Assembly: GCA_043814765.1 (NCBI GenBank)
Contig: JBDRJQ010000020.1
Location: forward strand, 3,028 to 67,027
Reading direction: 5' to 3'
Length of the DNA: 64,000 nt
Origin: Nanobdellota archaeon
GTDB lineage: Archaea > Aenigmatarchaeota > Aenigmatarchaeia > QMZP01
Under the pieces are notes generated by a model. It did not search any database, was not told where the DNA came from, and worked only from the letters and a program-made list of their open reading frames with translations. The translations under genes were made by a program, and so were the position numbers. This document shows positions 10,504 through 36,359 of the stretch, piece after piece (within the stretch, counting starts at the first letter, position 1; each line of letters starts with the position of its first letter).

Positions 10504-10608
10504 TGCGTCGACCGGGATTCGAACCCGGATCATTAGCTACCGTCTAAACCTTTTCTTAAAAAAAGGCTTATTGGAAGGCTAAGGTCCTAGCCGTTAGACT
10601 ATCGACGC
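10504..10608 (-). tRNA. tRNA-Gly(UCC) with 33-nt intron at 37/38
   Basis: Hand fold gives acceptor GCGTCGA/TCGACGC, D arm GTCT-AACGGCTA-GGAC, anticodon stem TTAGC/GCTAA, loop CTTCCA^A and T arm CCGGG-TTCGAAT-CCCGG. The intron maps to 10539..10571. Confidence 0.85.
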
Positions 10609-10620
10609 AAAACAACTGGA

Positions 10621-11121
10621 CTATACGTCCAGGTCAAAGTCATCATCCATGTCGCTTTCACTTACAATCTTTTCTGGAGTTATATCTTTTACTTGAGATT
10701 TGCCTTTTTTGATTGCAGCCGCGACTTGATCCAACATTTTGTCGTCCATTCTTTTGACTTCAAGTGCTCCTTCAAGACCTATTGGACCCTCATTCATGAA
10801 CCTTGGTATTACGTGGAAATGAACGTGATTAACCAACTGTCCTGCTGCTGCGCCGTTGCTCTGCCCAATTGACACTCCGTCTGATTTCATAGATGTTTTT
10901 ACCTGCCCAGCTAGTTTCTTCACTGCTAAGAAAAGATCTGAAGCTTCCTTGTCTGGCATATCCAAGATATTTGAATAGTGTTTTTTTGGAATTACTATGC
11001 TATGCCCTGGGTTCCTTGGATTAATGTCTAGGAACGCTAAATGCTTTGCATCTTCATATACCTTTCTTGTAGGTATTTTTCCTGCAGCGATACCGCAAAA
11101 CAGGCATTGTTCTCCTGCCAT
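10621..11121 (-). CDS. HIT family (histidine triad) nucleotide hydrolase/transferase
   Basis: Contains HSIVIPKKH and the HVHFHVIPR histidine triad, plus an acidic C-terminal tail. Confidence 0.85.
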   Translation of the reverse strand: MAGEQCLFCGIAAGKIPTRKVYEDAKHLAFLDINPRNPGHSIVIPKKHYSNILDMPDKEASDLFLAVKKLAGQVKTSMKSDGVSIGQSNGAAAGQLVNHVHFHVIPRFMNEGPIGLEGALEVKRMDDKMLDQVAAAIKKGKSQVKDITPEKIVSESDMDDDFDLDV

Positions 11122-11142
11122 ATTATCACCTTAGTTTTTGAA

Positions 11143-11346
11143 TGGGGCTACCCGGATTTTCATACCATGAAAATCTTCAGACTTCCTTTTGGATTAAACC
11201 TTTTTTCAAAAGGTTTATTTTGAACCGGGGTCGTAAGCTCTTTTTGAATCCATTTCAATTGGAAGCGTCAGCTCCTTTTACTGAAGCTTTTCTTGAAAAA
11301 GCTTCACCCAAAGCTTAAATGCTAGACCAAGCTACACCATAGCCCC
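11143..11346 (-). tRNA. tRNA-Pro(UGG) with two introns (67 nt at 37/38; about 62 nt in the T-loop)
   Basis: Hand fold gives acceptor GGGGCTA/TAGCCCC, D arm GTGT-AGCTTGGTCTA-GCAT, anticodon stem TAAGC/GCTTA, loop TTTGGG^A (G37) and T stem CCCGG/CCGGG split by an insert. The introns map to about 11240..11306 and 11158..11219. The second boundary is ambiguous because AAAAT is repeated. Confidence 0.72.
11184..11217 (+). repeat. dispersed hairpin repeat, copy inside the T-loop intron of tRNA-Pro
   Basis: TCCTTTTGGATTAAACCTTTTTTCAAAAGGTTTA. Confidence 0.7.
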
Positions 11347-11392
11347 ATAATACCGTAATTGATTATTATAGTTTATAAAAGTAATAATATTC

Positions 11393-31725: not shown

Positions 31726-32130
31726 ATGGGATATGAAGAACTGCTCTCAAGGGCTATGAAGAAGGTGCCTGATAAAACAGGTAGCGGTGAGAGGTTTGAA
31801 ATGCCTAAATCAAAGATGCTGAAGCAGGGCGTGCGCACAATTTTCATCAATTTTAACGAGGTTATCAGCAAGCTCAGAAGGGATCAGAAACATTTCCTGA
31901 AGTTCCTTTTAAAGGAACTTGCCACGTCATTTGAAGAGAGGGACGGCAAGATGATTTTTCAGGGCGTTTTCACAGAGGAACAGGTAAACAGGAAGATTGA
32001 ATCTTACGTGAAACATTTTGTAATATGCCCTAAGTGCAGCAGGCCTGACACAAAGATAGTCGAAGAGGGAGAATCAGCGTTCCTAGTTTGCGAAGCTTGT
32101 GGAAACAAACAACAAATAAAGAAGGTGTGA
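31726..32130 (+). CDS. translation initiation factor aIF2 subunit beta
   Basis: Contains YEELLSRAMKKVP...RFEMPK and the Zn ribbon CPKCSRPDT...CEACG. Confidence 0.85.
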   Translation: MGYEELLSRAMKKVPDKTGSGERFEMPKSKMLKQGVRTIFINFNEVISKLRRDQKHFLKFLLKELATSFEERDGKMIFQGVFTEEQVNRKIESYVKHFVICPKCSRPDTKIVEEGESAFLVCEACGNKQQIKKV

Positions 32131-32132
32131 AC

Positions 32133-32543
32133 ATGAAATATAAATTCATAGAAGACCTTACTTCTGATGTAATGTTTGAAGCATACGGTAAGGATCTTAA
32201 AGAACTGTTTCAAAATGCAGCAGAAGCCATGTTCAGTGTTATCTGCCAGATGGATAAAGTGAGACCAAAAAAAAGCATGGAAATAGAAGCTGAAGCCAAT
32301 TCTAAAGAAGAGCTTATGATAGCATGGTTGCAAGAGCTTATCGCTGCAGTGGATACAAAGGAGATGTTTTTCTCAAAATTTGAGATTACAGAGATAGATG
32401 AAAAACACATCAAAGCAAAGGTTTATGGTGAAGATGCTGATCCGACTAAGGGTGAAACAGTAGTCAAAGCCGTTACTTACTATAAATACAAACTAGAAAA
32501 AACACCAAAGGGATTTGTTACAAGGGTTAGTTTGGATATATAA
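32133..32543 (+). CDS. archease (RtcB activator)
   Basis: The sequence runs MKYKFIEDLTSDVMFEAYGKDLKELFQNAAEAMF...KAVTYYKYKLEK. The internal ATG is preferred over the track start at 32088. Confidence 0.8.
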   Translation: MKYKFIEDLTSDVMFEAYGKDLKELFQNAAEAMFSVICQMDKVRPKKSMEIEAEANSKEELMIAWLQELIAAVDTKEMFFSKFEITEIDEKHIKAKVYGEDADPTKGETVVKAVTYYKYKLEKTPKGFVTRVSLDI

Positions 32544-33705: not shown

Positions 33706-33766
33706 AACATATGCAGTGATGAAGAGCGAATTACTATTTAAAAGCCCAAGAAATAAAATTGATACT

Positions 33767-35173
33767 ATGAAAGAAAAGCTAAAACAGGTCAACGATTTCG
33801 AATGGCTTCTACCAAAAAACTCCCGAGACAAAATGACTGTTGATGCAAAGATAATAGCCAACAAAAAAATTCTTGATGTCATTGAAGATGACGCAGTGCA
33901 GCAACTAACAAATGTTGCAACGCTTCCTGGCGTTGTTTCACCTGTTGTTGGTTTACCTGATATGCACTGGGGATACGGTCTGCCAATGGGAGCTGTGGGC
34001 GCTTTTGACGCAGAAGAGGGCATTATATCTGCAGGTTTATGCGGGTTTGATATAAACTGCGGCATAAATCTTATTCGCACCAATCTCACTGTAAAGGAAA
34101 TCAGACCAAAACTCAGAGAATTGGTTCCTGCTTTATTTGATGCCATTCCAAGCGGTGTGGGAGCAAAAAGCAAGCTTAGACTCACGCCAAAGGATCTAGA
34201 TGACGTTCTAGTTAATGGTTTAGATTGGGCCCTAGAAAAGGGCTACATAACAAAGCAAGATAAAGAAAACACAGAAGAGAAAGGCGTAATGAAAGGAGCT
34301 GATACTTCCAAAGTAAGCGATATGGCAAAAAAGCGCGGAATACCGCAGCTAGGCACTCTGGGAGCAGGAAACCATTTTCTTGAAGTGCAGGAGATAAGTG
34401 ACATTATTGATAAAAAAACTGCAAAAAAATGGGGAATCACAGAACCAGGACAAGCTATGATAATGATTCATTGCGGATCTCGCGGCCTTGGTCACCAAGT
34501 CGCTTCTGATTATCTTAAAATTCAGGAACAGGCTGTAAAGAAATATAAAATATGGCTTCCTGACCAGCAGCTAGCATGTGCGCCTGCTAATTCCCCAGAA
34601 GGCAAGGATTTCTATGATGCTATGAGAGCAGCTGTTAATTATTCTTTTACGAACAGAGCTGTTATGACTGGATGGCTTCGCGAAGTTTTTGAAAAAGTCT
34701 TTAATCGTTCATGGGAAGACATGGACATGCAGACATTATACGCAATTGCCCATAATATTGTGAAGCTAGAGGATCATAAAGTCAATGGCAAAAAGAAAAA
34801 ACTTTATATTCACAGGAAAGGCGCCACAAGAGCTTTCCCTGATACGCCTGTTATAATAGCAGGTTCCATGGGCACTTCCTCTTATCTTCTCAAAGGAACA
34901 GAAGAAGCACTAAAAAAGACTTTTGGTTCTTCTGCTCATGGAGCAGGAAGAGCCATGAGTAGACATGCAGCTATTAAAAAATACAGAGGAGATGTCATAC
35001 AGAAAGAGCTTGAAAAACAGGGAATAATATCAAAGGCAACGCATCCTAGAAGCTTTGCTGAAGAAGCACCTAATGCTTACAAGGATGTGGAGTCTGTTGT
35101 AGACAGTGTTCATGGTGCAGGGATATCAATAAAGGTTGCTCGCATGGTACCATTAGGAGTAATAAAAGGTTAA
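33767..35173 (+). CDS. rtcB: RNA-splicing ligase RtcB
   Basis: Contains GLPDMHWGYGLPMG, GFDINCG, GAGNHFLEVQ, HCGSRGLGHQ, HRKGATRA and SSAHGAGR. Confidence 0.92.
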   Translation: MKEKLKQVNDFEWLLPKNSRDKMTVDAKIIANKKILDVIEDDAVQQLTNVATLPGVVSPVVGLPDMHWGYGLPMGAVGAFDAEEGIISAGLCGFDINCGINLIRTNLTVKEIRPKLRELVPALFDAIPSGVGAKSKLRLTPKDLDDVLVNGLDWALEKGYITKQDKENTEEKGVMKGADTSKVSDMAKKRGIPQLGTLGAGNHFLEVQEISDIIDKKTAKKWGITEPGQAMIMIHCGSRGLGHQVASDYLKIQEQAVKKYKIWLPDQQLACAPANSPEGKDFYDAMRAAVNYSFTNRAVMTGWLREVFEKVFNRSWEDMDMQTLYAIAHNIVKLEDHKVNGKKKKLYIHRKGATRAFPDTPVIIAGSMGTSSYLLKGTEEALKKTFGSSAHGAGRAMSRHAAIKKYRGDVIQKELEKQGIISKATHPRSFAEEAPNAYKDVESVVDSVHGAGISIKVARMVPLGVIKG

Positions 35174-36116: not shown

Positions 36117-36309
36117 GGCCCTGTATTTTAACGGATAGAATGTGACCTTGCGGTAGGCTCTTGTCTCCAATAACATGGAACAAGAGACATCTCTCATTCA
36201 GAATAATGGGAGATGAGATTTTCCTCAGGGCAAAATCCTAGGGAAAATAGGAGGCTAAGGCCTTCCCTGCGAAGAGGTTGTGATCTGGGTTCGAGTCCCA
36301 GCAGGGCCA
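36117..36309 (+). tRNA. tRNA-Arg(GCG) with 121-nt intron at 37/38
   Basis: Acceptor is GGCCCTG/CAGGGCC, T arm is CTGGG-TTCGAGT-CCCAG and anticodon stem is TGACC/GGTTG. The pre-tRNA forms a canonical BHB: TTGC[GG^T]AGG ... CCT GCGA[AG^A]GGTTG. The intron is 36154..36274. Confidence 0.78.
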
Positions 36310-36359
36310 CTGAACATAAAAAGGAAAGCTTTATATACTTATTGTTATAAATATATAAC

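Follow-up and report, generated by a model that had tools for sequence, protein, structure and literature searches.

The tRNA-Pro(UGG) locus and its neighbourhood

The stretch of DNA analysed here (64,000 nt, hereafter the window) carries on its minus strand an interrupted gene for tRNA-Pro(UGG), which runs from position 11346 (G1) to position 11143 (A73) and measures 204 nt. A 75-nt cloverleaf results once two inserts, one of 67 nt in the anticodon loop (37/38) and one of 62 nt in the T-loop, are deleted, and ARAGORN calls the resulting sequence tRNA-Pro(tgg). The initial annotation had placed a tRNA-Pro(UGG) with one canonical and one T-loop intron at 11143-11346; these coordinates proved exact, on the minus strand, the lengths it gave for the two inserts were correct, and the assignment as a whole is backed by all computational tests run.

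Exon 1 (11307-11346, minus strand; GGGGCTATGGTGTAGCTTGGTCTAGCATTTAAGCTTTGGG; tRNA positions 1-37, 40 nt) supplies the 5' strand of the acceptor stem, the D-arm, the 5' strand of the anticodon stem and U32-G37 with the anticodon UGG, and it is followed by intron 1 (11240-11306, minus strand; 67 nt), which occupies nucleotides 41-107 of the pre-tRNA at the canonical position 37/38. Exon 2 (11219-11239, minus strand; AGCTTACGACCCCGGTTCAAA; positions 38-59, 21 nt) contributes A38, the 3' strand of the anticodon stem, a 4-nt variable loop, the 5' strand of the T-stem and T54-A59; intron 2 (11157-11218, minus strand; 62 nt) then interrupts the T-loop at position 59/60, a non-canonical site. Exon 3 (11143-11156, minus strand; TCCGGGTAGCCCCA; positions 60-73, 14 nt) completes the molecule with U60, the 3' strands of the T-stem and acceptor stem and the discriminator A73, CCA not being encoded. 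In the predicted mature tRNA-Pro, the exon ends would be joined as ...CUUUGGG/AGCUUA... (37/38) and ...GGUUCAAA/UCCGGG... (59/60), and the sequence bears the proline identity features G1-C72, A73, G35, G36 and G37. The gene is neither split nor permuted: its three exons are collinear, on one strand and within 204 nt. A TATA-box-like element (TTTATAAA; 11372-11379, minus strand), recognized by eye, has its centre about 30 nt upstream of G1 and may serve as an archaeal promoter. A C/D-box guide RNA of the tRNA-Trp type was considered for the introns and rejected, given that no Rfam snoRNA match lies inside 11143-11346 (E up to 10), no C box (RUGAUGA) was seen in either intron, and D boxes (CUGA) are missing as well.

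Beside the tRNA-Pro gene lie a HIT-family gene (10621-11121, minus strand) and a tRNA-Gly(UCC) gene with a 33-nt intron (10504-10608, minus strand); the three are co-oriented over window positions 10504-11346 and separated by spacers of only 21 and 12 nt. The tRNA-Gly gene and an intron-bearing tRNA-Arg(GCG) gene at about 36117-36310 account for the two further intron-bearing tRNAs that had been noted in the window.

In its intact form, the tRNA-Pro gene escapes standard finders. ARAGORN reported no tRNA here, whether given the window, the 204-nt precursor before splicing, or the whole genome with intron detection (-i), and Rfam gave no match there at the gathering threshold or at E up to 10. 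Removal of intron 1 alone led to no ARAGORN call. Removal of intron 2 alone gave Phe(aaa), the only alternative to emerge when single-intron folds and other isotypes, either of which would have counted against the initial annotation, were looked for; this call was not upheld, as a scan guided by bulge-helix-bulge (BHB) motifs instead gives Pro(tgg) with a 67-nt canonical intron. In that scan, each BHB-bounded segment in non-coding DNA was deleted before ARAGORN was run, and the same tRNA-Pro(UGG) gene was recovered independently.

In what follows, G000 denotes the host genome assembly of the window and C-numbers its contigs, G001 is a genome of the same genus, and L-numbers are loci in these genomes and in relatives; the host probably belongs to the DPANN phylum Aenigmatarchaeota. 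ARAGORN, even with intron detection, and the Rfam tRNA model both returned zero tRNA-Pro genes for G000, and about one third of its tRNAs are missed or mis-typed by ARAGORN or Rfam, so that the "tRNA completeness" of metagenome-assembled genomes (MAGs) of this lineage is systematically underestimated. BLAST searches with the mature sequence found only two tRNA-Pro genes, UGG and GGG, in this assembly of about 88% completeness. The sole candidate for a third, tRNA-Pro(CGG), was an alternative parse of the Arg(GCG) gene and was rejected. Since the only other tRNA-Pro found has the anticodon GGG, Pro(UGG) would be the sole reader of CCA and CCG, which together make up 54% of the proline codons in 507 long ORFs.

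Conservation of the interrupted gene

In G000, and likewise in ten relatives from across the order, the tRNA-Pro(UGG) gene adjoins the HIT-family gene, and this conserved synteny defines a set of positional orthologues; the same linkage suggests a shared transcript. Next to the HIT gene, the orthologues carry zero, one or two introns: L005, L028 and L029 have none, L024 has an intron at 53/54 alone, L025 combines 37/38 with 53/54, and L002, L004, L010 and L020 have the pair 37/38 and 59/60. An intronless positional orthologue is identical at 69 of 75 positions and reaches an Rfam tRNA score of 56 bits. For these comparisons a bounded window and a higher intron penalty were used, as unrestricted spliced alignment over 3-kb loci gave nonsense multi-intron paths. 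Between G000 and its congener G001, whose HIT proteins are 78% identical, only 4 of the 75 exon positions differ (3 of 40 in exon 1), and two of these four differences form a compensatory pair, 5:68 (C-G to U-A), that bridges exon 1 and exon 3.

Within G000, the closest counterpart is the tRNA-Pro(GGG) gene (C8:23191-23327, plus strand; 137 nt), which ARAGORN and Rfam both missed. It has no 37/38 intron, and its only insert, of 62 nt at 59/60, matches intron 2 of Pro(UGG) with 90% identity; the two tRNAs show one exon difference outside the anticodon arm. This paralogue bears on the notion that the locus is an assembly artefact or chimeric contig, in which the metagenome assembler wrongly joined copies of a repeat into a tRNA gene. 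Both inserts are indeed repeat-derived (see below), and repeats can mislead assemblers, but we consider such an error extremely improbable: G001, an independent assembly from the same genus, shows the exons in identical order and interrupted at both of these sites, the closely similar 59/60 intron of Pro(GGG) lies on another contig, and the insert boundaries coincide exactly with BHB bulges.

Splice motifs at the two junctions

The archaeal BHB motif consists of a 4-bp helix (H) between two 3-nt bulges, each of which is cut after its second nucleotide. From the sequence alone, the T-loop junction is ambiguous and could lie anywhere from 56/57 to 59/60, a region in which 59/60 is the only candidate with nine of nine BHB pairs. 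Position 59/60 is the structural analogue of 37/38 and a well-known non-canonical intron site. The placement of the intron in the T-loop by the initial annotation therefore stands, and its exact site, 58/59, is refined to 59/60 by BHB geometry, the spliced product being identical. The junction had been marked for a closer look at its BHB, and the motif turns out to be a strict hBHBh', in which the T-stem serves as helix h, H is formed by UUCA (54-57) and UGAA, the bulges are AA/A and AA/U (slashes mark the cuts), and h' comprises a U-A and an A-U pair. The minimum free energy (MFE) fold of the full precursor contains the same elements; in it, the acceptor and T stems form together with the 4-bp H and, at 59/60, the two 3-nt bulges (z-score -4.3). 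Per position pair, the chance of a BHB is p = 1.5e-4 for nine of nine pairs and p = 2e-3 for eight of nine or better.

Covariation was assessed with the register set from the tRNA stems alone, without fitting to the BHB, and by counting the pairs of H and h'. At 59/60, 86% of these positions are paired across 28 junctions (13 tRNAs of G000 and 15 tRNA-Pro genes of relatives), compared with 71% in shuffles, of which 0 of 500 reach the observed value, and 47% when the register is slid by one column. At position 57, tRNAs with A57 face an intron U, and those with G57 mostly face an intron C.

The BHB at 37/38 is relaxed, with eight of nine pairs. Its helix h has 5 bp, the bulges are AG/A and GG/U, and h' is made up of G-C, A-U and A-U; in H, U32-U34 pair with three intron A's to give three A-U pairs, and the fourth position is a G35·A mismatch. 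In a nearest-neighbour model, the MFE structure lies 10.9 kcal/mol below this conformer; it forms a U32-A38 pair instead, and a 3x3 internal loop contains or adjoins the splice sites. MFE folding was accordingly rejected as support for the BHB of intron 1, since it favours this other pairing. The motif was likewise rejected as the only means of locating intron 1, because it is not unique: the A/U-rich context offers several other BHB-like candidates with eight of nine pairs, so that the junction is set by the tRNA body rather than by the motif, and an intron read at 36/37 yields a mature sequence identical to that from 37/38. Across 19 tRNA-Pro genes, 81% of positions are paired at 37/38 versus 59% in shuffles and 50-58% in registers slid by one column, and the wobble base 34 (U, C, A or G) covaries with the intron base that it faces. 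Of the 19 genes, 8 share the G35·A mismatch, which is thus a tolerated feature, not an accident of this gene.

The relaxed 37/38 BHB is the weakest point in the case for splicing of tRNA-Pro(UGG). Because it is thermodynamically disfavoured, one may ask whether only the T-loop insert is standard, with the 67-nt insert leaving through another register or conformer (36/37, hBH or HBh') or with the help of an extra factor. The mismatch in H, its presence in 8 of 19 homologues, the energy gap and the equivalence of a cut at 36/37 would all fit such a route. We nevertheless regard it as improbable, as covariation prefers the strict 37/38 register over slid ones, h' is well paired (81%) with many compensatory changes, and the epsilon2 form of the splicing endonuclease EndA is documented to tolerate relaxed motifs (PMC3239211, PMC12397907). 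Excision of both introns through BHB motifs at 37/38 and 59/60 is the reading we prefer.

Splicing machinery and predicted maturation

An EndA of matching type is encoded outside the window (G000 C37:38712-39899, the same gene as locus L031:865-2055). This 396-residue protein is of the three-unit epsilon2 class (ARMAN-2 type) and aligns end to end with the ARMAN-2 epsilon2 EndA (PDB 4FZ2, E 2.5e-94); the catalytic triad Y236/H251/K282 is conserved, as are Y160-K161 of the ARMAN-specific loop. This Tyr-Lys loop confers broad specificity. Cleavage of a 59/60 intron in vitro is documented for this enzyme type (PMC3239211). Full-length epsilon2 orthologues are present in 59 of 61 related genomes, and orthologues are also found in many MAGs labelled Aenigmatarchaeota (55-64% identity) and in Micrarchaeota (41-44%). 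In many relatives, open frames of about 185-370 aa encode an additional EndA paralogue that is short and alpha-like; none was seen in G000. The reviews consulted place the epsilon2 enzyme only in Micrarchaeum and its relatives (Mancarchaeum), and our literature search found no paper that ties Aenigmatarchaeota to epsilon2 EndA or to intron-rich tRNAs; the combination of an epsilon2 enzyme and heavily interrupted tRNAs now spans Micrarchaeota and an Aenigmatarchaeota-like DPANN order. The RtcB RNA ligase (33716-35173, plus strand; PF01139, 522 bits), the inferred exon-joining enzyme, and its activator archease (32088-32543, plus strand; PF01951, 127 bits) are both encoded in the window, where they had already been recognized before these profile matches were obtained.

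Based on these components, a maturation pathway can be proposed. The 204-nt primary transcript would fold to present a BHB at each exon-intron boundary, the anticodon stem being extended at 37/38 by pairing of U32-U34 with an A-run at the end of intron 1, and the T-stem being extended at 59/60 by pairing of T54-A57 (UUCA) with UGAA near the end of intron 2. The epsilon2-type endonuclease would then cut in the four 3-nt bulges, archease-activated RtcB would ligate the 40-, 21- and 14-nt exons into the 75-nt tRNA, and CCA would be added after ligation. The gene anatomy, the motifs and their covariation, the enzyme genes and the interrupted architecture kept in orthologues can be read directly from the genomes; from them we infer transcription, cleavage and ligation of the precursor. 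On this sequence evidence, window positions 11346-11143 very probably hold a functional gene, the sole one found for tRNA-Pro(UGG), with two protein-spliced introns in a small DPANN archaeon.

Interrupted tRNAs across the host genome

The layout is shared by many other tRNAs of this genome. At least 13 tRNAs of G000 have a 59/60 intron, and at least eight have introns at both 37/38 and 59/60, namely Pro(UGG), Gln(UUG), Leu (CAG according to ARAGORN, read here as CAA), Thr(UGU), Ser(GGA), Ser(CGA), Ser(UGA) and Ile(UAU); this census is a lower bound, with C28:9760-9977 and C37:34385-34538 as ambiguous loci and an ambiguous 5' half in the Leu gene at C29:~68.2k. Besides the two proline tRNAs, the 59/60 introns belong to eleven genes at C13:2092-2340, C27:15681-15886, C28:38780-38973, C29:2374-2494, C29:73118-73320, C29:~68.2k, C35:29119-29321, C35:29385-29562, C35:29817-29985, C35:~13.7k and C8:16348-16521, seven of which also have a 37/38 intron and most of which are missed or mis-typed by ARAGORN and Rfam.

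Two side observations concern the same set of genes and those of relatives. Apparent A34 anticodons were seen in a Leu loop, CUAAGGA (AAG), in G000 at C29:~68.2k and in G001 at L106, as well as in a Pro loop, UUAGGGA (AGG), at L008 of genome G021; Leu(AAG) and Pro(AGG) have been noted in ARMAN-4 and ARMAN-5 (Fujishima et al., 2011, PMC3239211). In G001, Ser(UGA) and Gln(UUG) (loci L107 and L109) show an apparent third insert in the D-arm region beside those at 37/38 and 59/60, and they are candidate three-intron tRNAs.

Repeat-built introns and their turnover

Intron 1 of tRNA-Pro(UGG) opens with an exact 10-bp hairpin (TGAAGCTTTT-TCAAG-AAAAGCTTCA), just as first described, and also holds a second hairpin of a repeat family (AAAAGGAGC-TGAC-GCTTCC). 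Intron 2 contains a hairpin repeat (UAAACCUUUU-GAA-AAAAGGUUUA-AUCCAAAA) together with a second hairpin. The family has a consistent layout, in which a hairpin NAAACCTTTT-loop-AAAAGGTTTN is followed by ATCCAAAA and then by a hairpin AAAAGGAGC-loop-GCTTCC. That the repeat in the second intron is dispersed, as the initial annotation held, is borne out genome-wide: its core, AAAGGTTTAATCCAAAA (at most 2 mismatches), has 39 copies in G000 versus 0.7 in shuffles, located in 59/60 introns, 37/38 introns and intergenic DNA, with over half of them outside tRNA genes, and the copy in intron 2 shares a 32-nt stretch of 100% identity with an intergenic one. Module A occurs in the 59/60 introns of Pro(UGG), Pro(GGG), Ser(CGA), Ser(UGA), Val(GAC), Thr(UGU) and the tRNA-Leu genes at C27:15681-15886 and C29:~68.2k, and in the 37/38 introns of Ala(GGC) and Ser(CGA), with a variant in that of Pro(UGG). 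Judged by these resemblances, both introns of tRNA-Pro(UGG) are copies or variants of one dispersed hairpin repeat family, and similar introns are found in different tRNAs and at different positions of a single genome, which is the pattern of copied introns of the Thermoproteales type.

Outside tRNA genes, the window contains copies or variants of the repeat (...AAAGGTT[TG]NATCCAAAA...) at about 15073 (minus strand), 27756 (plus strand), 29355 (minus strand) and 30819 (minus strand), the last interrupted within its second hairpin by a nested insertion similar to that of the Val(GAC) intron. Another copy (C35:11589-11636) lies directly against the 3' end of a tRNA-Ser(GCU) gene without introns (C35:11637-11721, minus strand).

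A repeat of this kind raises the question of whether tRNA-Pro(UGG) is a dead gene that received two MITE-like hairpin-repeat insertions, the working copy residing in the unassembled 12% of the genome. Both inserts hold copies of a repeat that is also present in intergenic DNA, and a genome that is about 88% complete leaves room for a second tRNA-Pro(UGG), but decay of the gene appears very unlikely on several grounds. The exons are intact, with a compensatory stem change relative to the same-genus orthologue; in several genera, the syntenic locus retains the two-intron layout despite unrelated intron sequences; and the junction helices covary. Moreover, at least 13 tRNAs of G000 bear the same type of insert, many of them being the sole copy found for their anticodon, and a matching broad-specificity endonuclease is encoded in the genome. 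We thus retain the view of a functional, spliced gene whose introns are built from a repeat.

Comparison of the two congeneric genomes indicates that these introns turn over within the genus. Intron 1 of Pro(UGG) is present in G000 and homologous in G001 (82% identity in a BLAST match that spans exon 1, intron 1 and exon 2), and the 59/60 intron of the same gene consists of module A in G000 and of the unrelated module B in G001. Ser(GCU) has no 59/60 intron in G000 and a module B intron in G001, Val(GAC) has a 59/60 intron in G000 and none in G001, and Ser(GGA) has a 37/38 intron in G000 and none in G001. For several introns, the difference between G000 and G001 consists of nested insertions in hairpins, and module B also occurs free-standing in G001, just past a stop codon. 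Such a turnover pattern, in which each difference may be a gain or a loss, would be the expected output of a mobile, DNA-level intron source. No insertion signature was found. A target-site duplication of the palindromic TTCGAA was considered as the source of the H helix and rejected, as tRNAs with TTCA pair with TGAA and not with a copy of the T-loop.

We are evenly divided on whether the 59/60 site and, less so, the 37/38 site act as landing pads that are repeatedly recolonized by lineage-specific mobile hairpin elements. According to this proposal, the 3' tail of such an element (YGRR-AA) would complement the near-universal T54-T55-C56-R57, so that an element bearing the tail could be excised by the epsilon2 endonuclease from almost any tRNA upon landing. 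Intron 2 of Pro(UGG) would then be a recent arrival or replacement that postdates the split between G000 and G001, and the locus, if the proposal is true, would offer a snapshot of intron birth and turnover driven by a DNA repeat, an arrival route for archaeal tRNA introns. Introns that are shared with a repeat and that change between congeneric species make the arrival of archaeal tRNA introns testable by comparative genomics.

Comparison with known systems

Multi-intron tRNAs are known from Crenarchaeota, Nanoarchaeum, Korarchaeum, two methanogens and ARMAN-1/2 (PMC4033280), and they have now been described in Asgard archaea (bioRxiv 10.64898/2026.10.13.758758). The nearest precedent is ARMAN-2 (Candidatus Micrarchaeum acidiphilum), in which 56% of tRNAs are interrupted, pre-tRNA-Cys is cut at 59/60 in vitro, and a tRNA-Pro(GGG) carries two introns, at 53/54 and 59/60 (PMC3239211). 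The rarity that the initial annotation attributed to the present gene was therefore overstated, since 59/60 multi-intron tRNAs, a two-intron tRNA-Pro among them, have been published for ARMAN-2 and at least eight tRNAs of G000 share the layout. Given this published two-intron tRNA-Pro, the tRNA-Pro(UGG) gene adds to an already known two-intron 59/60 design of tiny archaea. By itself, a two-intron gene would not surprise a specialist; the interest lies in its repeat-built introns and their genus-level turnover.

ARMAN-2 and G000 have in common a DPANN host, a three-unit epsilon2 EndA of about 390 aa with a conserved Tyr-Lys loop (Fujishima et al., 2011, PMC3239211; 4FZ2; PMC12397907), many interrupted tRNAs, 59/60 introns, a two-intron tRNA-Pro and a weak D-stem in tRNA-Pro. 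They differ in that the two-intron tRNA is Pro(GGG) with 53/54 and 59/60 in ARMAN-2 and Pro(UGG) with 37/38 and 59/60 in G000, that G000 belongs to another phylum-level lineage (Aenigmatarchaeota-like), and that a genome-wide repeat makes up the introns of its Pro(UGG), which are long (62-67 nt).

In Thermoproteales, according to the portions of the literature summarized in PMC4033280 and PMC4090602, tRNAs have up to three BHB introns each at recurrent non-canonical sites (Sugahara et al., 2008; Fujishima et al., 2010), and near-identical introns occur in unrelated tRNAs at different positions, implying that introns are copied between genes. G000 resembles this system in its multiple introns per tRNA and in the similarity of introns across different tRNAs and positions, but the Thermoproteales enzyme is an (alpha-beta)2 endonuclease with a Crenarchaea-specific loop, whereas that of G000 is epsilon2. 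A further published tRNA-intron system shares with G000 introns that are missed by standard annotators, repeated gains and BHB-competent sites; in G000, by contrast, intron sequences visibly recur in a dispersed repeat and from one tRNA gene to another.
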